Counted from the first letter of the stretch, positions 18,311-35,900 are shown. The stretch is DNA of 48,509 nucleotides from Chiloscyllium plagiosum (GCF_004010195.1 NC_057752.1:5583754-5632262), one strand, 5' to 3'. Made by a program: numbers and translations. Notes: generated from the letters alone by a model not told the origin.

Positions 18311-19328
18311 CTCAATCCTAAATGGTCTATTCTGTATCCTTACACTGTGGCCCCTTGTTCTGGACTCTCCAGTCATGAGGAACCTCCTTCGTGTTCACTC
18401 TGTCTAGTCCTGTTCGAATATTATACTCTTCTATGAGATTCCCACCGTGCAATTTTTCTAAATGCCAGTGAATATAATCCTAACTGATCCAGTCTCTCTT
18501 CATACATCAGTCCTGCCATCCCAGGAATCACTCTGGTAAAACTTTTTTTTTACAGGTGTGGTCTCACCAAAGCCCTGTATAATTGCAGCAAGACACCCCA
18601 ACTCCTGCACTCGAATCCTCTTGCTATGAAGGCCAACATACATTTGCCGCCTTCACCACCTGTTGTACCTACATGCTTACCTTCAGCGACTGGTGTACAA
18701 GGATATTCAGATCTTGATGCATCTCCCCCTTTCCCAATCTTATCACCATTTGGATAATAATCTGCCTTCCTGATTTTGCGACCAAAGTGGATAACCTCAT
18801 ATTTATCCACATTATACTTCATTTACCTTGCATTTACCCACTCAACTTGTCCAAGTCACACTGAAGCATCTCTGCATCCTCCTCACAGCTCACCCTCCCA
18901 CTCAACTTTGTGTCATCTGCAAACTTGCAGATATTACATTTACATTCATGATTTAGATGAAGGAATTATGTTATAACTAGCTAGAGTCCCAGCACTGAAC
19001 CCTGCGGTACCCCATTAGTCACTGGCTGCCACTCAGAACAACATCTGTTTATTCCTATTCTTTGTTTCTGACTGCCAACCAGTTCCCTATCCACGTCAGT
19101 AGACGACCCCCAATTCCATGTACTTTAATTTTACACGCTGACCTCCAATGTAGGACCACATCGAAAGCCTTCTGAAACTCTAAGTAAAACACATCCACTG
19201 GTTCCCCTTATCAACTCCAATAGATCCATTCTTAAAAAACAAATTCTGCAGATTTGTCATGATTTCCCTTTCATAATTCTATGTTGACTCTGTCTGATCC
19301 TGTCACTATTTTCCAAGTGCTCTGCTAT

Positions 19329-19548
19329 TGTTATGAAGTTGAAGGTGTGTACTGTACCTTTAAGAGAGAATGAAAGCTGGCAAACACCTGTCATGCCATT
19401 CGGTTTAAATTATGCATCATGATAATAAAACCCAACTGAATTTGAATCTTACTGTTTTGACAACATCGAACCGATGAGGCGATCCTATGTTTGGGGTATA
19501 AAAGTCAGACATTTTGTACAGTTAGCCAGAAAAGAGCACCACCTGCCA
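19329..19548 (+). mobile_element. Partial LTR (U3 to start of R) with TATA box, left arm of the composite insertion
   Basis: Aligns to the reverse complement of 22540-22831 with a ~75-bp gap. GGGTATAAAAG at 19494-19504. Fuses to KMT2D at cacctgcca. Confidence 0.85.
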
Positions 19549-22103
19549 AAGGTGGATCCATGCAGACTGTGGTCCTTCTTTTCTCCATTTATCAGAGCAA
19601 CAGTGCACATGTACAATATGTAAAAACCCATCACAAAACTCAGGCCTTTCGCCTTCTGATCATGTTGTTGAGAGGCAGTTGAAGCTTGGGTCAGTGGAAT
19701 CAGAGAAAGTAAAAGAAACTGAATTGTCTGAAAAGCAGAGAAAGGATGTTGAACCAGAAAAACAATGGAATGAGAGTGTCACTGGAGAGCCATTTCAGAA
19801 ACAGGAGTGTTTCATTGAAGCTACTAGTAGTAGTGTGGAAACAGCAATTCAAAGACGACAAACGTCTGATGTTGGCACCAAGGAGCAGGTGGAATCTCAA
19901 TCTCTTATTTCTTCAGAGGAAGGTGGGGTTGAAGACTTAACTACAGTGAAAGAGTTTGAACATGAGAAACCTGATGAAGGATTCCATTCTTCTCCAAATA
20001 GAGATGTTTGTCAGACTTCTGAAACTGGAGGAGGTGCACAACCTTCTGAGAGCATTAAAAGTGGAGTAATCACTTCAGTGGAACCTTTGTCTGCAGGAAA
20101 AGAATTGCCAGAACATTTCAGTTTGGATCCAGCAGACCAGTTGGAAGATTTTATACAGGAGAAGGAAGTAAAAATGGAGAGCTCGGTTTCTCTGTTAGAC
20201 CAGGTAGAGCCAGGTCTTCCTGCAGAGATGGGTGTCAGTCCCACTGGTTCCATCCCAGAAGAATTGAAACCCCACCGCCTTATCTCACACCCTGACCTGA
20301 TGGACTCTGCTAGTAACTCTGCCGAAGCACAATTAGACTCTGCCACCTCTGTTTCGATCAAGCAGGAGACTAACCAAATCCAAACAGACAAAACTGAGCT
20401 CTGTGACATTCCTGCTGATTCAAGCTGTAGCTTCGTGGAGAGGGGTGAAGTTTCTGATATAGTCTCGGATGGAATGGAGACCAGGGATAATCCTGTTGAA
20501 ATGGAAGTTAATGATATTGTGACCCCTATGGAGGTTGTACCTGCAGTAAATAAGCTAAAGACTGAGCAAGATGCTCAAATGGAGGTGCAGGATATTGGGA
20601 GCACAGACCCTGTCAGTAACATGTTCATTAAAGCCGAGATAGTAGAGGAAATATCGAATCAAAGTCAAACGGACTCGAACAGCACCTGCTTGGAACCAGA
20701 TTATCCAGTTACTTTGGACCGTGATCCCAGTCTGGCTACTATGGATGTTTGCATGACCGTAGCAGATGATGTTTCTCCAAGGGTGGAAGAAGAAGCTGAA
20801 AAGTCCAATTCAGACCTCCGGTTAACAGAAACTGAAGATTCCCTCCCAGCTGACTCTGGAATGAAGAAGAGTGAATCTGGCAAGCCTGCTATAATGAAGA
20901 GGCGCTTTTCACCAGGTCACCCTCGAGTCAAGTAGGTAAACAAGGAAGAAAGGCGTATTTTTTTTGTTTTTGGACGAGGGCAATCACATTTGAAGTCTGT
21001 GTCTGGAATCTTGGAGTCTCTGGGATCTACAGGAGTGGATACATCTGCAAGTAAAGATGATGATGACAAAACACAGTGGTTCTCTTCTCTTCACTGAAGA
21101 CAAATTTATTCTCCAACAGGATATGTGTGTGGTCTGTGGGAGTTTTGGACGAGAGGTAGGGGGACAGCTGTTGGTTGTTCAGTGTGGGCAGTGCTACCAC
21201 CTATACTGTGTCAATTGTAAAATGACAAAAGTTATGTTGAGCAAAGGGTAGCGTTGCTTGGAATGTATCGTATGTGGTGCATGTGGAAAAGCTTCTGAAC
21301 CTGCTCGTTTATTGTTATGAGATGACTGTGAAGTAAGTTCCCACACGTATTACCTGGATCCACCATTGCAAACTGTTCCAAAGGGTGGGCGGAAATGCAG
21401 GTGGTGTGTTTGCAGTGTGGTGCCACAACACCTGGTTTTCACTGTGAGTGGCAGAATAACTACATTCACTGTGCACTTTGTGACAGCCTTGTTACTTGTC
21501 CTAGCTGCAATGAAGACTATGAAGAAGATCTTCTCATACAGTGTCACGACTGTGATCAGTGGGTCCACGCCATCTGTGAAAATCTCTTCATAGAAGATGA
21601 AGTGGAACAAGCGGCAGATGAGGGCTTTGATTGTACTGCATATGAGCCCTTTATTCATCCAGTTATTCGAAGTGAGTCCTCCGTCATTGCACCTGTCCTC
21701 AAAGTCAAAGATCCAGAGCCACGGTTTTATAATCACGACGGCGTATGGTTGACAGTCGGGCATGTCACAGTTCCGAAGTCTTATACTTTCTCCGCCGCAC
21801 AAAAAAGGACCAAAGCCCAAACTAAAGAACAAACCTCCGACACCATGCAGTGAGCCAATGATGGTTAGTATGGATGGCTCATCTATAGAAATAAAGAAAG
21901 GAGGAGGTGAAGGGGACGAGGAAAAGGTTGCCATGGAACCAGGAGAATGTGATGTAAAATTCGATGCACCTGTCAGCCAGGAGCAAGAGGTGTGCCCAGT
22001 GAATAATCGTGTAAAAGCAAGTGAAGAAACTGAGGAAGGGAAGAGGGTGCCACACAGACTCTGAAGAGGTGGATTTATGGTCCATCTGAGGCAATCCCGG
22101 ACG
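19541..22103 (+). pseudogene. kmt2d: Processed (intron-less) KMT2D/MLL4 fragment: end of a PHD-like finger, acidic linker, PHD4-PHD6 and downstream region
   Basis: TCQRWIHADC; QDMCVVCGSFG; DPPLQTVPKGG; PGFHCEWQNNY; SLVTCP; EDEVEQAADEGFDC; DGVWLT; EETEEGKR; GGFMV. Diagnostic residues favour KMT2D over KMT2C. No introns across the PHD cluster. Stops at 20933, 21249, 21318, 22062 and several frameshifts. Confidence 0.88.
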
Positions 22104-22111
22104 AGTCCCCA
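22094..22111 (-). other. Primer-binding site complementary to tRNA-Pro 3' end
   Basis: The - strand reads TGGGGACTCGTCCGGGAT vs canonical TGGGGGCTCGTCCGGGAT (17/18), 3 nt from the LTR end. Confidence 0.88.
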
Positions 22112-22114
22112 AAC

Positions 22115-22831
22115 TGTTCTGACACAGCGGTGAACCCTTCTAATTAAATCAAACACCAGAGAAAGGCTCACCTTGCCTTGTAATCTGTTAAAGTATGAGT
22201 GTCAGAGAACTACCTAAATTCCACTATTTAACAAAAAAAATCAATTTTATTCCTTAACTCTAAAAGTGAACATTAAACAACAACTATTTACAACTCTAAG
22301 CCTTCTTTCTCTTAAAGGTTCATTATCTACCTCCCACTCTATAATAATATACTGAACCAATAAAGCCCTTATTAAATTTACAGCAACTCAATTTTCAAAA
22401 GCCAGACAGTGGCTGTCATCTCCGGTGTTGATCTTCCTCTGTTTGTACATCTCCCTGGGTCATCTTCAGGGATAAAGATTTTTCATACGAAAAAGGTACC
22501 TTTGACAGTGTGTGTTTTCGGGCAGTCTATCTGACAATGGCAAGTGCTGCTCATTTCTGGCTAACTGTCCAAAATGCCTGCTTTTTATACCCTAAACATC
22601 AGATCATCTCATTAGTTTGATGTCATCAAAACAGTAAAATTCAAATTTGATTGGGTTTTGGTATACTGGGGCATAATTTAAACTGATTGGTTAAATTTAA
22701 ACTGCTGTGAAAACAACTGGTATCTAAAATGTTACATCTTTCAATTTTCCAGCACACTCTGTGACATGACAGGTGTTTGCCAGCTTTCTCTCTCTCTTCA
22801 AGGTACAGTACACACCTTCAACTTCATAACA
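22115..22831 (-). mobile_element. Full LTR (~717 bp), right arm of the composite insertion
   Basis: TG...CA termini. On the - strand, a GGGTATAAAA box (~22584-22593) and AATAAA (~22246-22251). Followed after 3 nt by a PBS. Confidence 0.85.
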
Positions 22832-23757
22832 CCATTAAATCTTTTATAATTGACTCTAGCATTTTCCTCACCACCAATATCAGAGCAACCAATCTATAAT
22901 TCTGTTTTCTCTCCACCTCCTTTTTGAAGTAGTGAGTTTTCATGAACTACCCTCCAATCATACAAACTAATTCAGAGTCTATAGAATCTTGAGAGGTGAC
23001 CACCAATACATTCACTATTTCTAGAGTCTTCCAGTACGCTGGATATAGATTATCAAATCCTGCGGATTCATCTGCCTTTAATCCCATCGATTTCCTCAAC
23101 ACCATTTCCCAACTAATACTGATTTCCTTCACTTCCTCTCTCACTACACCCTGTGTTCCCCAACACTTTTTAGGATGTTATTTGTGTCTTCCTTTGTGAA
23201 GACAGAGCCAAATTATGTATTTAATTGGTCTGCTATCTCTTTGTTCTCCACTATAAAACTTCCCCTGTTTCTGACTGTAAGGGACCTATATTTGTTTTAA
23301 CCAATCTCTTGCTTTACACATACCTTTAGAAACTTGTAGAATGAGTTCTTATATTCCCCACAAGCTTACTGTCACACTCCATTTCCCCCCTCTTAATCAA
23401 TCCTTTTCTCCTCCTTTGCTGAAATCTGTACTGCTCAGGTCTGTTACTTTATTGGCCAATTCATATACCATTTCCTTGGATCCAATACAATTCCCTAATT
23501 TCCCTTGTTAACTCTGGTTGGACCACCTTTCCCACTTTATTTTTGTGCCAGGCAGGAATGAACAATTGTTGCAGTTCCTCCATGCGCTCTTTAAGTGTTT
23601 GCCATTGCATATCCAGCTTGTTTCTAATTTCCTCTTTAACGTCTTCCCTACCATTGCCAATACAGTTTGTGCACCTAAATACAACCCCTTTAATTTTCTG
23701 CCCTTTGGTGTTTCTAAGCTCTACCCATACAGTTTCCATTTCACTGGAGCTAACATC

Positions 23758-24420
23758 TAGGGATATTCAGTTGTCAAGATGGACAGACAAAAAGAAAAGG
23801 AGATGGGGTAACATTGCTGGTTAAAGAGGAAAGTAACACAATAGTGAGGAAGGATGTTAGCTCCAGTGAAATGAAAACTGTATGGGTAGAGCTTAGAAAC
23901 ACCAAGGAGCAGAAAATAACAGGGGTTGTATATAGACGCACAAACTGTATTGGCAATGTTAGGGAAGACATTAAAGAGGAAATTAGAGACTAGCAATAAA
24001 AGTACAGCTGTAATTATGGGAGCCTTTAATTTGCATGTAGTTTGGGCAAATCAAGTCAGTAACAATGCCGTAGAGGATGATTTTCTGCACTGTGTATGAG
24101 ATGGTTTACTGGATTAATATGCTGCAAACCCAGCAAGAAAACAGGCCATCGTAGACAGGGTATTGTGTGATGAGAAAAAAATAATTGGCAATCTTCCCTT
24201 GGGGAAGAGTGATCATTACACGATAGATTTTTTCATTAAGATGCAGAGTGATGTAGTTAACTCTGAGACTCAGGTCCTGAATTGAAATAAAGGAGACTGC
24301 AATGGTTTAATGCATTAGCTGGCTCCAAAAACAATGGGAAATGTTACTTAAAGGGATGATGGTAGAAATACAATCGCAAACACTTAAAGTGCACACGGAG
24401 GAACTGCAACAATTATTCAT
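23758..24420 (+). mobile_element. CR1 LINE endonuclease region, inverted relative to the adjacent RT part
   Basis: Degenerate VWVELRN, GVVYR, VIMG-FN, LGKSDH apurinic-endonuclease motifs. Confidence 0.8.
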
Positions 24421-24773
24421 GTATTCATCCTTTTGTTCAAGGCAATGGTGACTTATTCTTTAAATGTATTTAAAGCTGAGATTGATAGTTTTTTTTTTAT
24501 TTTCATCAATGTCAAGTGATTATGGGGGCGGACAGAAAAGTGGAGCTGAGACTACAACCAGATCAGCCATGATTTATTAAGTGATGGAGCAGGTTCAAAT
24601 GGCTGAATAATCCAAGGTCCTCTGTTCCTTGGCCCCATCACATGTAGAGACTTGTGATAAACAATGAAGACACTGTCAGCCTTAGGAATCTTTGTCTTGA
24701 AGCATCTATTTAATAAATTTGCATTTTATTTACTTCACCAAAAGGAAAAATATTGATTTATTCTCACTTACAG

Positions 24774-27700
24774 TTATCGGGGGAATCCTGTGATACCACC
24801 TGCAGCCTCAGCGAGAGACGTCAACTCCAGGAGACCGAAGGAGCCAAGGCCACATATTTTGCAGGATTCCACCAACCGTGGGGCAGTGCAGCCCAGAGGT
24901 GAATATGGGGAGACACGGACTCACTGGTGGGAAGCAGCGCCAGTCAGAGAGGCAAAGGCTTCCAAGCAAGAGGGGCACTGGGACAGAGAAGACTGGGAAA
25001 TGTGGGAGTCAAAGGATCATCTGGAGATGCGCCATAAGAGGAAGCAAGAACGTAGAAACCTGGGCAGAGAGTGGAACTCCCCAGAGCAAGTCAAAAGGTC
25101 ACTAGGACATCAGCCAAAGCCATCCAGATGTCCTCTGCCTCTGCTCTATGACACAATCTATGAGGAATGGGAGCCCCTCTATAGAAGGGGTTTGCCACAA
25201 TGGCCTTCTGTCAACCAACCCGCTGATGACAGACAAGTCGAAATATATCAATTTTATAAAGAGCAGTCTACAAGAGACCTCTCATCACACAAAGAGGCTT
25301 TCAAAGTATCGAACCACAAACTGAGAGATCCATCAGAAATGGCAATGTCACTTGCCCCCAGTAGATTGGGAGAGAAAGGTTACAAAGACCGTCCCCTGAA
25401 ACCTCCAAGTTATGAGATGTACTTGCAGATGAAAGTACAAGCACAACAAGAAAGGAAGAGTGCAGAGTTTGAGAAGAGCCAGAGAGGCCAGGTGATTGAT
25501 CGACAGGTAAACAGCTTTGCAGAGCAGAAAGAGCTGCCTCCCTCTATCTGCCAGCAGCTGTTCAGCAGAGAGAGAAGACATCAGGGCATAGGTAATGTTT
25601 GTGGGTCTAATGTGCCACCAACTTTTCAAGCCAGTAATTATCAGGAGTTTGATGGGGAAAAAGACAGAAGATATCCTCCAATTTCAGAAGTCGGATTTAA
25701 CCTCCCACTGGATTGCTTTTGGAGAGCAATTCCTGATGGACAGAATTGGTTGGAAGTTGGTAGAAATGAGAAAATGGGCCAAGTGAATCAACAGAGAAAA
25801 TGTATTGATGCTGAATGCTTTGGAGAACAGCTGCTTGCTCGCACCAGTCCTGCCAGTTGGTATGCTGCAGAGAAGGATGTATGTTCTGGAGTGGTACCAC
25901 ACTTCAGAGAGATTGACCTCCCATTATATCCCACCCCCACAGAAAGCACCAAAGAAAAATATAAGCAATCTAGTTTGAAACATGAAGGAATCAAAGTGCA
26001 AACTCCACAGGTTGAATTGGAAACTTGGCCCAGAGAAAAGGATGTGGGGAACAGAATGAAGGGTGAAGTTCTCAGAAGCAAAAGGGGTGAAGTTGTCTTC
26101 TGTCTCGTCTCCAGAGCCAATAGTTGTCAGTCAGCTCAAGACACTCAATCACATACACTCCCCAAAGTTGGCAAGGATTCTAATGTTCCAAGTTGGATCA
26201 ATGAGCTTGAACCAACTCTCCTGACCCGGCAGGATGGGAACTTTTACAAAGGGGGGAGTAAACATGAAGTTTCAAAGTCTGCCAATGTGGAGGTAGTAAA
26301 AGCTCTGGATGCTGTGCAAGGTTATGTCAACCCAATCAGACTGCAGGCTTGCCTGGATGGGCCAAAATATACAAGCATCTACTGTGATAGTGAGAATCCC
26401 AGAGCCCTGAACATGACTTGTGATCCAAGGGATGGCCTCCATTTCACAACCAGACACAGGCAGAGGCCTTTGTCCCCAAGGCAGCTGCTGTCTTTTGATG
26501 CTGGAGAGGAGCTTAGGAGTTACAGAAACCCTGATATCTCGTCAAGCAGAGAGGCCTGGGGGTTTCAGCACAGTGGAGCTGACAATTCCTTAAATCACCT
26601 GCAGGTGACCGGGCAAGAAGCTGGTATACAGTGGCACAGAGCGCACCTGAGAAATGAAGTGGGGCAAATTGCTCTGTCTCCCAATAGGAGGAACAGACTG
26701 GACCGCTCAACTGCCTGGCACCTCATGCAACATGTTGAGGCACCTAGAAGGAGAGTAGCCTGGGCCAATAGAGAGGATGTACAGAGAGAGAGAAAACTTC
26801 CTGAATGGAAAGAGCCAATGGGCTCTGCTCTGAAGACAGGACAGCTGATCAGACAGAGAGCAGAGAGAGAGGGCCCGGATCAGAATGGGCTATTTCTTAT
26901 TGATGCCAGCTCTGCCATTGTTAAGGTGCAATATATTTCTTCGCCAGAGCCAGAACGAGTGAGATTTTCATCACCCATTCAAGTTGAAGATTCATTTAAA
27001 CGTGCTACACTCCCTGATAGCAGCAAGGGCAGGAATTTAAATGCAGAGGGGCAAGAATTCAGTCACACTGTGACATCCCCACTTAAAAATATTGTAAGCA
27101 CCAGTAACCATTCCTTTGGGGCTCATGTATCAGATTCTATTAGTAGCAGCGATTGGCAACATAGTAAAAATATTCCAGAGGAAAGTGGAGACCTGTTCCC
27201 ACCTCCCAGGATGAAGGAGAGCATAAAGGAAAGGAGCATCCGGATATTGGGTCTGCCCAGGATGGAGCCAGATTCAGTGGAAGTACAGGCCAGGGAGAGT
27301 GAGCCAGAGGCCAAGGAGAACGGGGCAGTTGCCAATGAAGTGAGTGAGCAGAATGAGCCTCAGACAGAGAGCAAACCAGAGCCACGGTCTGGTGATGACA
27401 CGGTGGATCATTCCGAGATAGTACAGGATTGTATTGGATCGGAAACTGTGGAACCAGCAACTGCTGAGAGGCTGCAGCTTCCCACTGCTGCTCACGCTTC
27501 ATCGCTGCTTGAGGTTATGTGCAGTGTGCCTCAGACAGGGGCCAGTGAGGAGAAATCCAGCCAGCTCGAAATCCCACATGAACCCCCATCCCTGTTCCCT
27601 GAGGGTCACGGCTCCAGCAGCGGAATTGAGGGCGATTCCGGGCACGCAGCTCCTCGGGAGCTTGGCAATCCGAATCCAGCAGTCGAGGAGTTGCAGGGTA

Positions 27701-28134
27701 AGGTGCTGCGATCAATTTTGAAGCTCCGCCGCCACATGGCTCCTGACTCGGAGTCGGATGATGAAGAACAGGAACGCCTCCTAGCGTCCGCAGTAATAAC
27801 TGGCGGCAGGGCAGCAGCGAGCCAGCCGCTTGCAGAGGGAGGGGCTGGCGATAGTGTTGGCAGAGAGCGAACCTCTTCCGGAGTCGCGAGTCGACAGCGG
27901 AGCAGTGAGCCGCAGGGAGTGGCGAACATAGCGTCGGCGACTCACTGCTGGCGAGACGCCAACGAGGCGCTATCTCTGTCGGAGAGCGTTGTGTCGGAAC
28001 GGTTGGAGGACCGAGCTGAAAGTCAACCGGGAGCTGACGATGCCACAAATACCGCCCTCCGAGAGCCGCCTCGTGGCGCGGGAAGCCCGGAACGTGAAAG
28101 CACCGCACCGTGTGGTACTCTGGTTTTAGGGTAG
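24774..28134 (+). CDS. ddn: Dendrin-like protein, large main coding exon (~1120 codons)
   Basis: 1114-aa ORF preceded by an acceptor (ttctcacttacag|, exon starts 24774, phase 2). Four motifs match human dendrin in the same order: HILQDSTN (~RVLQEATN), PPSYEMYL (~PPSYEAHL), LFLIDASSAIVKVQYI (~LFxIDATCVVIRSQYV), LRRHMAPDSESDDEE (~IRRHTAPDSDTDEAEE). Human motifs recalled from memory. Confidence 0.88.
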
Positions 28135-32952: not shown

Positions 32953-35900
32953 CCTCCCCCCTTTAAAAAAAACCCATCAATATCCAAAGATGGTTTCATT
33001 TTAAAACCCCTTAATCTTAAATTGTTAGTACCCTACAACACACATATACATTACATTAGCTATAAACATGCAAACTACATTCTATTTCGGTCTGTTTTAC
33101 TCCTGCCACTGAACACCTCCGTTTCTCATTCACATCTCGACAATGTATCGATAATCACGTTTTCACACCCTGCCACGTTCACAATTTTCAAATTGAATGG
33201 CTGTAACAACAAGCTCCATTTAAAGACTGTGGAATACTTGTCGTTAAATTTCTCCACAAACCTCGATGGGTTATGCTCAGTGTATATGATTGTCTCAGAT
33301 ATGTTACAGGTAACAGAAACATCGAAATGTAACGCCAACACCAAGCTCAAAGTCTCCTCAACTGTCAAATATTTCCACTGATGAATGTTCCATTTCCTGG
33401 AGAAATACCCAATAGGTCTTTCAATCTTCTCGTCATTTCCCTGTAAGAGCACAGCACCGACACCCCACATCACTTGCATCGATAGCCACCTTGAATGGCT
33501 TTGTGTAATTAGGTTTGGCTAATACTGGGGCAGTGGTGAACACAGCTTTCAGTCTGTCAAATACATTCTGACAGTCCGCTGTCCACTGAAACCTCTTGCC
33601 TTTCTTTAGTAATTCAGTGAGTGGAGCAGCCACACTGCTAAAATTTGGTAGGAATTTTTGATAAAATCCACTCAGTCCCAGGAACCATAATACTGCTCTT
33701 TTTGTCGATGGTACAGGAAACTCCCCAATTGCCTTTGTTTTTACATCCCCTGGGGCCATTTGTCCATGTCCAATAACATGGCCCACAAAAGGGACTTGGG
33801 CTTTGGCAAATTCACTTTTAGCCAGGTTTATCACCAAGCCTGCCTTCCAAAGTTGATTGAACAAGTCTGATAAATGTTACAAATGTTCTTTCCCCGTGTG
33901 ACCAAAAATCACCAGGTCGTCTATATTTACATACACGACACAATTGGATAATCTGGCAATTATCTTATTGGTTGGTCTCTGTGATATCACTGGTGCATTT
34001 TTCATACGAAATAGCATGACTTTAAACTGATACAGTCCATTAGGTGTTACGAAAGCCAACATTGCCTTTGCTCTTTCGGACAAAGGTACCTGCCAGTATC
34101 CTTCGAGCAAGTCCAACTTAGAAATATAAGTTCCTTGTCCCACCTTCTCAACACAATCTTCCAAAGGCAGAATCAGATATACATCAGTCTTTGTAACTGC
34201 ATTGACTTTGCAATTGTCCACACATAACCATTGGGTACCATTTGGTTTTGGCACCATTACTATGGGCAAGCTCCAGTCACCATAACTCGCTTGGATTATG
34301 TTGTCTTGGAACATACGTTCAATCTCCTTGTGAACCTGTGCCAACTTTAGAGTGTTATACCTATAAGGATGTTGCTTAATTGGAACAGCATCTCCTATTT
34401 CTACACCGTCCATAATTAGGTTAGTACTTCACAGCTTATTTCCACATATGTCCCCTTGTGATAGTAATTACTCTGTCAGGTAATTTTGACTTTCCTCCAG
34501 AAGGTAACTCAATAATTTATTCTAATTTTTAACAACTTCCTCATTGTCCAATTTAATTTGAGGAATGTCCAATTCAGAATCCTCTGAATTTAGTTCTTTC
34601 CTCTGTGTTGTAACAAACAACACAATCTCCTTTGGCTTTCCTTCCCTGTCAAAATACCTTTTGAGCATATTCACATGACGCACTCTGTGAGACTTCTTTC
34701 TGTCTGGAGTCCTTATCAAATAGTTCGCCTCACTCAATTTCCTTTCAACTTGATAAATCCACTAAACCTTGCTTTTAAATGTTCACCTATGACTGGAAGT
34801 AACACTAACGCCTTATCCCTGATAGCAAAATTGCGAGTTTTTGATTTCTTGTCTGCTTCCTGTTTCATTGTATGTGGTGATACTTTTAAATGCTGTCTAG
34901 CCAACTCCCTCATGCTATGTAATCGTTCCTTCAAATTTGATATCTAGTCCAAATATGTGGTCTCTGAATTCTGACTGACCAATTTCTCCTTAATCAAGTT
35001 TAGCAGTCCTCTCACTTCATGCCCAAAAACTAATTCAAATGGGCTAAGTTTGGTCGATTCATTTGGTACATCTCTGATTGCAAAAAGCACAAATAGAATT
35101 CTCTTATCCCAATCATCTGGATAGTCTTAACTATAAGCCCTCAATATGGTCTTTAATGTCTGATGTCACCTACCTAGCAATCCTGTGACTCTAGATGGTA
35201 CGCAGTAGATTTGAATTGTTTTATTTCTAAGCTACCCTTAACTTCCTTGAACAATTTCAATGTGACATTTGACCCTTGATCTGATTGTATCTCTATGGGT
35301 AATCCGTATCTAGTGAAAAATGTGAGTAATTCCTCTACAATCCTTTTAGCTGTGATATTGTGTAATGGTACGGCCTCTGGAAATCTAGTCAATACATCCA
35401 TTACTGTTAACAAATACTGATTCCCACTTTTTGTTTTAAGAGGGGTCCTACGCAATCAATTAAGACGCTTGCAAAAGGTTCCTAAAATGCAGGAATAGGT
35501 ATTAAATGTGCGGGTTTTATTACTGCCTGTGTGTTTCCAATTACCTGAAATGTATGACATGTCTGGTAAAATTCAATTACATCCTTATGCAGTCCAGGCA
35601 AGTAAAAATGTTTTTGTATTTTAACTTGAGTTTTTCTCACTCTTAAATGATCTCCTAGTAGTAGTTCATGCGCCACCTGCAACATCTTCGTTCTATAACC
35701 CACTAACAATATGACTTGATGAACTTCTCATCTGTCTGAATATGGGATGATCTCCATTTTCTCATTAAGACATTATTTTTAAGATAATAACATTCAGGGA
35801 TACATTTGGATTCTTTTTCTGTGTATGCCTTTTGCTACAATTGCTTTAAATTTTCATCTTTCTGCTGTAACTCAGTTAATTTATCAGAGTTAAAGATGTC

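Follow-up and report, generated by a model that had tools for sequence, protein, structure and literature searches.

A unit at positions 19329-22831 of the analysed window seems to be an LTR-mediated retrocopy of part of the host gene KMT2D, which carries the same LTR tip at both of its ends and was inserted as one piece. The window is the whole stretch of Chiloscyllium plagiosum DNA that was analysed (48,509 nt, GCF_004010195.1 NC_057752.1:5583754-5632262), and all positions are counted from its start. The unit was probably produced in one step, by aberrant reverse transcription of a Ty3/gypsy-type LTR retrotransposon with a tRNA-Pro primer.

When read on the minus strand, the unit is composed of a complete LTR of 717 nt (22831-22115), a GTT spacer between U5 and the PBS (22114-22112), a tRNA-Pro PBS of 18 nt (22111-22094), antisense spliced KMT2D cDNA and an inverted piece of the LTR, the same layout and coordinates as given in a preliminary description of this DNA. 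The complete LTR, of the TGT...ACA type, reads TGTTATGAAG...GTCAGAACA and contains a TATA-like box (22592-22582) and an AATAAA motif (22251-22246). The partial arm at the other end (19329-19548, plus strand) corresponds to the first ~294 nt of the LTR, from the U3 tip inward, minus a deletion of 74 nt, and has a TATA-like box of its own at 19497-19504. When this arm was aligned with 22538-22831 on the minus strand, 187 of the 220 aligned positions were identical (85%), with a single 74-nt gap that corresponds to the absence of LTR positions 22688-22761 from the left arm. The inverted matches between both arms within the window (BLAST, E = 1e-25 and 3e-36) are far beyond chance. The ends of the whole unit are TGT...ACA, and the unit is flanked by the 4-bp TSD CTAT (19325-19328) and CCAT (22832-22835), the latter with one change from CTAT, both as previously claimed.

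The whole unit was inserted at once and bears a TSD. Ten of the 29 paralogous host-repeat copies have the two flanks side by side, overlapping by exactly 4 nt, CTAT, and read GCTAT|TAAATC, the motif being present there only once (...GCTCTGCTAT|TAAATC...). As these ten paralogs are uninterrupted at this point, 19329-22831 was inserted as one piece, with duplication of CTAT. A separate TSD for each arm, as expected from independent insertions, was not found, since one TSD brackets both arms, and no KMT2D or other foreign sequence lies between the unit and its host-repeat flanks. The assignment of the host repeat to CR1 was not confirmed, as no relevant Pfam match was obtained among eleven flanking ORFs. 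Short-read joints considered as a putative empty allele had sides of only 21-25 letters, did not fall at 19328/22836 and were taken as paralogous repeats.

The arm is the LTR of an abundant Ty3/gypsy-type family and not the TIR of a transposon. A first look at the genome gave 6924 LTR candidates, and the complete LTR of the unit has 79-86% identity with the 39 further copies, full or near-full, that were scored among them. The proposed BLAST check revealed solo LTRs with 4-bp TSDs and a direct LTR pair elsewhere in the genome, so that the arm is not always found as a TIR. The members of this pair, on contig C19, are 5.8 kb apart, with gypsy-type integrase, reverse transcriptase and RNase H domains in between (Integrase_H2C2 at ~3.1 kb, RVT_1 at ~4.7 kb and RT_RNaseH_2 at 5.1-5.6 kb), in a copy that is degenerate, has no matching TSD and is possibly composite. 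The location of the integrase upstream of the reverse transcriptase is a hallmark of Gmr1, according to PMC8220671. An internal 5' region was common to three loci (L004, L014 and L007) and an internal 3' region to two (L017 and L018), with PPT-like tracts before the 3' LTRs of L018 (AAGGGAGAGG) and L017 (AAGGGGGG). Among 29 loci of the family, solo LTRs included, 8 had perfect 4-bp TSDs and 5 had TSDs with 3 of 4 positions matching. The LTRs of the family end in TGTTATGA...TCATAACA, with the same 8 bp (TGTTATGA) at the U3 and the U5 tip. The spacer of the unit is also that of the family, with 62 genomic matches to ACA-GTT-PBS(Pro) versus 0 for a control pattern.

The interior of the unit (19549-22093) contains KMT2D in sense on the plus strand, antisense to the full LTR. 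This cDNA of ~2.55 kb comprises the last bases of one exon and 13 further exons, all 14 joined at the exon borders of the parent and matching along C43:5358378-5379726 without introns. It encodes PHD fingers (Pfam) and is broken by stops and frameshifts, and the copy is a dead, decayed pseudogene of part of KMT2D. The identity of the parent was confirmed with its N-terminal orthologue P0002, whose 49 best named matches were all KMT2D, with lower values for the shark KMT2C orthologues (proteins above 5000 aa were left out). A dendrin-like gene is located 2 kb from the unit, and in human DDN adjoins KMT2D. A 1125-aa ORF gave nothing usable from the protein atlas. Matches to the cDNA part were restricted to its own locus, the parent gene, one contig of 1.3 kb and a paralog (C5), with one occurrence outside the parent. 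No significant hypermutation was detected in the cDNA after correction for base composition (G>A 23/381 vs C>T 11/265, p=0.37), and the difference between A>G (20/414) and T>C (6/348) was marginal (p=0.026), these changes being scored without outgroup polarity.

The PBS (TGGGGACTCGTCCGGGAT, minus strand) matches 17 of the 18 positions of the reverse complement of the 3' end, plus CCA, of the tRNA-Pro of the same genome, and both of its CpGs are intact. The tRNA-Pro genes were confirmed with ARAGORN, and Rfam gave no match for the 84-nt PBS loci. The right junction falls inside this PBS: the parent KMT2D reads GGCAATCCCGGAC|AAAAAATATG, with an A run (AAAAAA) after GGCAATCCCGGAC, and the window reads GGCAATCCCGGAC|GAGTCCCCA. 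At 22094-22102 (minus strand; ATCCCGGAC on the plus strand), the 3' half of the PBS, up to its 3' end, is complementary to the parental mRNA over 9 nt. By our own arithmetic, such a 9-mer is expected by chance at ~4e-6 per site, or ~0.07 times in a 17-kb mRNA. The earlier proposal that strong-stop DNA mis-annealed to KMT2D mRNA at the PBS is strengthened by this complementarity.

At the left junction, the motif CTGCCA (19543-19548, plus strand) is common to the LTR and to the end of the upstream KMT2D exon, which in the parent reads ...CATATCTGCCAAAG|gtaagt at C43:5358387. Thus, the suggested alignment of both junctions to the parental kmt2d sequence yielded microhomologies of 9 nt on the PBS side and 6 nt on the arm side. 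CTGCCA is the commonest state of the family at this place of the LTR (17 of 29 copies), and the last 12 nt of the left arm (CACCACCTGCCA) have an exact match in 7 of the 29. The pair cacctgcca/cacttgcca, put forward before as the microhomology of the switch, had compared the two arms with each other, and is replaced by CTGCCA. The three following bases (AAG, 19549-19551) can come only from KMT2D. A transcript that starts in the LTR and is spliced to a KMT2D exon was considered because of a BLAST match that begins at the exon border, but was rejected: the AAG of the window sequence CCAAAG|GTGG derives from the upstream exon's end, which excludes a splice at the left junction.

Plus-strand strong-stop DNA consists of U3-R-U5-GTT and the PBS, whose 18 nt are copied from the tRNA, and its normal annealing target is the minus strand. 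On the strand with LTR and PBS in sense, the cDNA runs antisense, so that first-strand cDNA is continuous with the 3' end of a plus-sense LTR-PBS. Such an end has the structure of plus-strand strong-stop DNA, and the joined exons show that the template was a mature sense mRNA. From the orientation, the splicing and the junction, we infer that the last 9 nt of strong-stop DNA (GTCCGGGAT-3') would have paired with AUCCCGGAC of a KMT2D mRNA in the particle. Extension by reverse transcriptase for ~2.55 kb along the spliced mRNA would then have generated the product that is now observed. The growing strand may have been joined at CTGCCA (6 nt) to a strand bearing the LTR's 5' part. The simplest candidate for this strand is a second plus-strand DNA, primed at the PPT, on which synthesis would have run off exactly at the U3 tip. 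The preliminary description had invoked a switch to element RNA; such a template would not make the DNA terminate at the U3 tip, and plus-strand DNA from the PPT cut appears more likely. In the last step, the duplex with a U3 tip at both ends would have been placed by the element integrase in an interspersed repeat, with the usual 4-bp duplication. The 4-bp TSD around the whole unit and the two U3 tips support the claim that a linear DNA with two U3 ends was inserted by integrase, and such an integration is plausible for this family because its tips are identical for 8 bp. According to PMC7240061, ~20 nt of LTR end are enough for integrase. Afterwards, the copy decayed to a pseudogene without amplification, its largest exon being apparently homogenised with the parent.

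Related products were found within the family. Three of 20 sampled LTR-PBS sites contain another 20 nt of tRNA-Pro, followed in each by a different, unrelated sequence. As these three copies carry 38 and not 18 nt of tRNA-Pro, mis-extended plus-strand strong-stop DNA does integrate in this genome. Another locus (C22) is an LTR-GTT-PBS-AAC-LTR palindrome that ends at LTR position 609, where the RNA may start, in which case the left arm of the KMT2D unit may be U3 only. An inverted LTR piece within 1.5 kb was present at only 1 of 29 LTR loci examined, and no second host cDNA between inverted arms was found among 20 of the 62 PBS sites (60 nt each) and the 29 LTR loci with 1.5-kb flanks.

The event has been reconstructed and not observed, and microhomology is also a signature of host microhomology-mediated end joining, by which free strong-stop DNA, a KMT2D cDNA and a U3 fragment could have been stitched together before insertion by integrase. 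Such an origin would likewise leave a U3 tip at either end and a 4-bp TSD, and microhomologies of 6 and 9 nt suit template switching and alternative end joining equally. However, it requires an independently made KMT2D cDNA and two joins with both outer tips kept intact, whereas the right junction coincides exactly with the 3' end of the PBS of 18 nt, by which strong-stop DNA naturally anneals and which the read-through copies show to be often extended by reverse transcriptase itself. We consider this origin rather unlikely.

A stepwise history is less credible still, and we hold it to be very unlikely. In it, an LTR-flanked capture or an ordinary insertion would have been rearranged later by inversion and deletion, or two LTRs would have been inserted around a LINE-made KMT2D pseudogene. 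The unequal length of the arms and their identity of only 85% could be accommodated in this way, and rearranged copies exist in the family, with an internal deletion in L098 and an inverted duplication in L099. In contrast, the flanks are contiguous in the paralogous repeats, a single 4-bp TSD encloses the unit in its entirety, nothing of KMT2D lies outside the arms, and microhomology to the mRNA is present at both junctions. Moreover, to convert U3/U5 outer ends into U3/U3 the outer breakpoint has to be moved, which destroys the TSD. The copy also lacks what is expected of a LINE processed pseudogene (the mRNA 3' end, poly(A) and a TSD usually >6 bp), as it starts inside an exon, at a PBS-like site, has no poly(A) and is flanked by a TSD of 4 bp instead of a long one. 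Regarding the arms, their 85% identity and the 74-nt indel would fit age and two different source elements equally well, a point that also counts against aberrant reverse transcription in one step.

Support from reads was scored as short-read contigs, from four samples of two studies, with at least 31 letters on both sides of a junction. The arm/cDNA junction was bridged by two contigs (X2 record 11 and X5 record 17) and the cDNA/PBS/U5 junction by four (X1 record 8, X2 record 15, X5 record 21 and X7 record 32), whereas none of the listed contigs spanned the outer flank junctions at this threshold. The preliminary description had made the structure dependent on long reads that span it, and of this the two internal junctions hold in independent short-read contigs, whereas the outer ones lack a bridging contig among those listed. 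An assembly artefact in which LTR copies and KMT2D sequence were joined, for which the very high copy number of the LTR (6924 first-look candidates), the outer junctions and a large exon so close to the parent that it could be collapsed or over-polished might be invoked, is extremely unlikely, as it would explain neither internal junctions bridged in four samples, nor a 4-bp TSD at a site contiguous in ten paralogs, nor an intron-less KMT2D sequence that differs by 6.4% from the parent.

Some contigs deserve separate mention. The low-depth contig X1 record 2 matches 19550-19842, with 689 other letters upstream, and our guess is a graph chimera with the parent exon. The runs X5 and X7 are probably RNA runs, because they contain spliced parental KMT2D mRNA (a loose end at 19543). 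The contig with arm and cDNA, X5 record 17, could be of RNA or DNA origin.

The cDNA differs from the parent at 6.4% of positions outside the large exon (88/1377; 93.6% identity for the other exons), and the arms differ from each other at 15.0% (33/220), about twice as much; the two divergences agree in age. In contrast, the large exon (19809-20953, plus strand) is 99.5% identical to the parent, with 6 differences in 1145 positions and none at all in 19813-20632, and is a probable gene-conversion tract, homogenised later with the nearby parent. The parent gene lies 223 kb from the unit on the same strand, which by our own arithmetic has a chance of ~1.4e-4 under a uniform insertion model. This nearness, which random integration does not predict, is unexpected, and neither it nor the 99.5% identity of the exon is explained. 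It is possible, but unlikely, that mis-priming by plus-strand strong-stop DNA is a recurrent, unnamed route of gene-fragment duplication in LTR-rich genomes, with the 223 kb reflecting reverse transcription or integration near the RNA source. If so, an antisense host cDNA between two inward-facing LTR promoters would be a ready source of dsRNA against the parent gene.

Products with tRNA read-through of plus-strand strong-stop DNA are known from Ty1 and retroviruses. The three family copies described above likewise show an over-copied primer, and no priming on host mRNA. In the 5' inversion of L1 by twin priming, an inverted structure also arises in a single insertion event, when two strands begun at opposite ends come together on the same RNA-derived stretch. 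However, that process is the target-primed reverse transcription of a LINE, in which LTR, PBS and integrase have no part. Pack-MULE-like elements, Ginger and DIRS with inverted LTRs are superficially alike, with a host fragment between inverted repeats and a short TSD, whereas the arms of the KMT2D unit are gypsy-type LTRs, it is single-copy, and it shows no transposase, tyrosine recombinase or sign of later mobility. As it is single-copy, the unit is not a Pack-like family, and the likeness to a Ginger/Pack-type element drawn before finds no support, the cDNA part being found once outside the parent gene and the arms being LTRs.

A close relative is the LTR-mediated retroposition of host mRNAs, described for Drosophila and other animals by Tan et al. 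2016 (PMC5131818), where yeast Ty1 and maize Bs1 are also cited. According to that paper, the host mRNA is likewise copied by the element reverse transcriptase, joined at microsimilarity and inserted by integrase as a partial, intron-less copy with a short TSD. The model presented there places the switches in minus-strand synthesis, and its sense copy is enclosed by a 5' and a 3' LTR in direct orientation, both of which should coexist for integrase, whereas the KMT2D copy, antisense to a complete LTR, begins where the PBS has its 3' end and is bounded by two inverted U3 tips. Thus, the unit shows the intron-less partial fusion with microsimilarity (14 exons; 9 and 6 nt) of such retrocopies, but not their direct-LTR sense layout. 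The terms inverted, strong-stop and PBS are absent from PMC5131818. Plus-strand strong-stop transfer, as described in PMC6894440, shares with the KMT2D unit the U3-R-U5-PBS primer and its annealing by the PBS 3' end, with the difference that there the acceptor is the 18-nt PBS complement on minus-strand DNA, and here a host mRNA with 9 complementary nt. No description of such an inverted-LTR retrocopy or strong-stop structure was found in the literature searched, which scarcely covered older retrovirology, where a precedent is possible.

LTR elements are known to duplicate host genes, with the copy in sense between direct LTRs; this locus shows a failure at a different point of the same machinery, in which the second strand transfer probably went astray with a host mRNA as acceptor. 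Natural traces of such a replication error, by which host genes are duplicated, are rare, and here one is preserved with its junctions, a proxy of the empty site and read support, and it implies that integrase accepted in vivo a DNA with two U3 tips. For annotation, gene fragments beside a PBS and antisense to an LTR are worth seeking rather than discarding as mis-assemblies, and pipelines that demand direct LTRs overlook such retrocopies. The mechanism is also relevant to the pick-up of cellular sequences by retroviral vectors and endogenous elements. Finally, the nearness of the parent together with one near-identical exon makes this locus a small case in which ectopic gene conversion of a gene and its retrocopy can be tested.

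The window is G000:C43:5583754-5632262 in the 3.56-Gb shark assembly, C43 being the contig. The structure analysed here occupies 19329-22831 of it, equivalent to C43:5603082-5606584, and is 3503 nt long. When the sequence was re-read, the minus strand was found to carry a repeat of 717 nt (22831-22115; TGTTATGAAG...GTCAGAACA), followed by GTT and by an 18-mer PBS, TGGGGACTCGTCCGGGAT, at 22111-22094. KMT2D-type sequence abuts the PBS without any spacer and encodes PHD fingers on the plus strand (Pfam PHD); the PDB matches of this interior were KMT2D and KMT2C PHD modules. The unit is closed by an inverted arm (19329-19548), the reverse complement of 22538-22831, which aligned to the repeat with 187 of 220 positions identical and a single 74-nt gap. 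A search within the window revealed no second sequence resembling the unit. The order of parts given in the preliminary description was thus borne out, and its observation is confirmed. Nested inverted repeats were also seen at 23558-24420, with 142-nt arms (23616-23757 and 23853-23994, 92% complementary) inside outer arms of 56 nt (23558-23613 and 24365-24420, 88% complementary); these may represent a small foldback or MITE-like element.

With the left flank as query, 29 paralogs of the interspersed host repeat were retrieved, and the right flank was then aligned to each. In 10 of them, which read ...GCTCTGCTAT/TAAATC..., the left flank ends on the base that is fourth in the right flank; no same-strand match to the right flank was found in three copies, and in the remaining 16 the alignments ended before the junction or were offset. 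As the flanks overlap by four bases in these 10 paralogs, the insertion target was CTAT; its two copies enclose the 3503-nt unit as a whole, and the right one has changed from CTAT to CCAT. Therefore, the 4-bp TSD (CTAT/CCAT) proposed earlier marks one insertion. Two independent insertions are excluded by this single duplication around the whole unit, as is a rearrangement shifting an outer end.

A genome search with the LTR plus PBS as query yielded 6924 first-look candidates; scoring of 40 of them produced 42 matches, which were 79-86% identical except for the copy in the window itself and two short, partial ones. On contig C19, two LTR copies were found in direct orientation 5.8 kb apart, with Integrase_H2C2, RVT_1 and RT_RNaseH_2/RT_RNaseH between them in this order. 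An integrase ahead of the reverse transcriptase is the hallmark of Gmr1-type gypsy elements, according to PMC8220671. The C19 copy has this domain order and may belong to that clade, but it is degenerate and its flanks carry no TSD. Its 5' internal region is common to three other family copies and its 3' internal region to two, in which purine tracts precede the 3' LTR. Among 29 LTR loci, eight were solo LTRs flanked by a perfect TSD of 4 bp; in five more, three of the four positions matched. Family LTRs begin and end as TGTTATGA...TCATAACA, and their U3 and U5 tips are therefore identical over 8 bp. When CpG decay was allowed for, ACA-GTT-PBS was detected at 62 genomic sites versus none for a reversed control, and the PBS of the window, with both its CpGs intact, agreed with the 3' end of tRNA-Pro and its CCA in 17 of its 18 positions. 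The PBS followed by its read-through continuation was found at 27 clustered sites, two fetched loci of which were tRNA-Pro genes with anticodons TGG and AGG (ARAGORN). The repeat at 22831-22115, which recurs as a direct pair on C19, as solo LTRs and beside a Pro PBS, is the LTR of a genuine retrotransposon family.

The interior, 2545 nt long, corresponds to successive exons of C43:5359115-5379726 on the same strand, in 13 exon pieces without introns, and another 4-9 nt derive from the exon ending at C43:5358387. These exons belong to the parental KMT2D gene (G000:C43:5358195-5488481), on the same contig and strand as the unit. With the orthologous KMT2D N-terminal protein P0002 as query, the 49 best hits carrying a gene name, among proteins of up to 5000 aa, were all KMT2D, and shark KMT2C scored lower. 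The retrocopy lies ~115 kb downstream of the parental FYRC exon (C43:5488338) and 223 kb downstream of the last copied exon; under uniform integration, the chance of an insertion at most 245 kb from the parent is ~1.4e-4 by our arithmetic. The copy is interrupted by stops and frameshifts and is a pseudogene. Elsewhere in the genome the cDNA matched only the parent gene, a paralog on contig C5 and an unplaced 1.3-kb contig, which speaks against the earlier idea of a Pack-type element; the LTR/KMT2D chimera never amplified. In the unplaced contig (G000:C30961:1-1284), overlapping segments are 99-100% identical to the large KMT2D exon; it is probably a haplotig or assembly debris. At 2 kb from the unit, a 1125-codon open frame without a Pfam domain (24757-28134, plus strand) is 100% identical to a shark protein annotated as 'uncharacterized protein' and 41% identical to a relative with Pfam Dendrin (E 6e-8); such a dendrin-like neighbour agrees with human KMT2D synteny.

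The 1145-nt exon at 19809-20953 is 99.5% identical to G000:C43:5363813-5364957, with six differences and none within 19813-20632, versus 93.6% for the other 12 exon pieces (88 of 1377 positions, 6.4%, differ outside the large exon). A frame of 469 codons is still open, although the copy is broken elsewhere. Ectopic gene conversion between KMT2D and the retrocopy ~240 kb away, restricted to the sole exon of sufficient length, probably accounts for this near-identity and would also explain the open frame. Among the differences from the parent between 19550 and 22102, without 19809-20953, A>G changes on the mRNA-sense strand (20/414) exceeded T>C changes (6/348; p=0.026, without outgroup polarisation), a weak hint of RNA editing or transcription-linked bias. 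Divergence between the two arms is 15.0% (33 of 220 positions; standard error ~2.4%), about twice the 6.4% between cDNA and parent, as expected if the arms were alike at the time of copying.

At the right junction, the parental mRNA reads GGCAATCCCGGAC/AAAAAATATG versus GGCAATCCCGGAC/GAGTCCCCAAAC in the window. Nine bases (22094-22102) are common to KMT2D and the 3' half of the PBS, and the base preceding them also agrees with the tRNA. On the left, where the mRNA crosses an exon border as CATATCTGCCAAAG/GTGGATCC, the window has CACCTGCCAAAGGTGGATCC and the LTR CACCTGCCATTGTCAG; CTGCCA (19543-19548) is common to KMT2D and the LTR, and AAG is attributable to KMT2D only. A splice at this point, suggested by a BLAST match starting at the exon border, is ruled out by this AAG. 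The CTGCCA state is the commonest in the family at this position (17 of 29 copies) and was retained by the left arm; the right LTR of the window has since been altered to CTTGCCA.

Twenty sequencing runs contain part of the stretch, and assembled contigs from four of them (X1, X2, X5 and X7, from two studies) were examined, a bridge being counted with at least 31 letters on either side of a junction. The arm/cDNA junction was spanned in X2 and X5, and the cDNA/PBS/U5 junction in all four runs; X1 or X2 may come from the assembled sample, and hence would not be independent support. No contig from these four runs bridged the outer flank junctions at this threshold. A 982-letter contig of X1 (record 2, depth 3) matches 19550-19842 across two exon joins with 10 differences, and its 689 letters upstream of 19550 are unmatched; it may be a graph chimera with parental intron and exon.

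From the established structure, single insertion, TSD, microhomologies and family identity, a route can be proposed. The exon joins show that the template was mature sense mRNA, and therefore that the first-strand cDNA was the antisense strand, which in the window runs 5' to 3' out of U3-R-U5-GTT-PBS. This is exactly the composition of plus-strand strong-stop DNA, which has a free 3' end at the PBS and normally anneals through it (PMC6894440). Strong-stop DNA most likely annealed to AUCCCGGAC of the KMT2D mRNA and was then extended. The far end of the unit is an exact U3 tip. Such a tip is normally produced by run-off at the 5' end of the PPT-primed plus strand, and for this reason the simplest reading is that CTGCCA is the point at which the growing cDNA was linked to a second plus strand. 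The switch to element RNA put forward in the preliminary description fits less well, since at the RNA 3' end synthesis would continue into PPT and pol and extra trimming would be needed. After joining to a second plus strand, the finished duplex with two U3 tips would have been inserted by integrase, which requires only ~20 nt of LTR end (PMC7240061); in this family, moreover, 8 bp are common to both kinds of tip. Co-packaging, this sequence of steps and the kind of strand that served as second template are what we infer, and a one-step origin of the unit by reverse transcription appears likely. The earlier interpretation is supported with corrections, which concern, among other points, the less likely switch to element RNA and the label U3/R for the arm: the arm may be U3 only, depending on where in the LTR transcription starts.

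Among described processes, LTR-mediated retroposition (PMC5131818) comes closest; it has the enzyme, microsimilarity and TSD in common with the unit but expects direct 5' and 3' LTRs, whereas the arms here are inverted. Inverted arms, PBS and strong-stop DNA are not mentioned in that paper. A literature search, in which older retrovirology was thinly covered, yielded no description of host cDNA with priming from the end of the PBS and an inverted LTR tip on either side. With a close process known and such coverage, we rate the unit as a variation on known LTR-mediated retrocopying and not as categorically new.

Downstream continuations were sampled at 20 of the 62 PBS sites, and in 14 the family leader follows the PBS. 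In three (L079, C2:110999454; L083, C3:61494236; L088, C27:2548103), 20 more nt of tRNA-Pro follow (38 nt in total) and then three unrelated sequences. In all of them the tRNA part ends at one position, immediately 3' of the anticodon loop, and they are independent, integrated read-through strong-stop products. Of the other three, one runs into a sense-oriented LINE-like ORF, one into the RT/RNase H region of the element itself, likewise in sense, and one into an inverted duplication. At L081+L098 (G000:C2:128787500-128788177), LTR-GTT-PBS and ~60 nt precede the element's RT/RNase H region in sense, and this locus is a family copy with an internal deletion. At L094+L099 (G000:C4:53432198-53432880), LTR-GTT-PBS is followed by a ~220-nt inverted duplication, the far end of which adjoins a reversed 13-nt PBS fragment; some of the duplicated stretch is 73% identical to 35267-35499 of the window. 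On C22, a palindrome (L045 2134-2982; G000:C22:51287633-51288481) consists of a full LTR, GTT, the reversed 18-nt PBS, AAC and reversed U5 up to LTR position 609, ~23 nt after AATAAA. It may be strong-stop DNA extended along another LTR strand, and its end may correspond to either the start of the RNA or its poly(A) site. Therefore, as the read-through copies and the C22 palindrome indicate, mis-extended plus strands do integrate in this genome.
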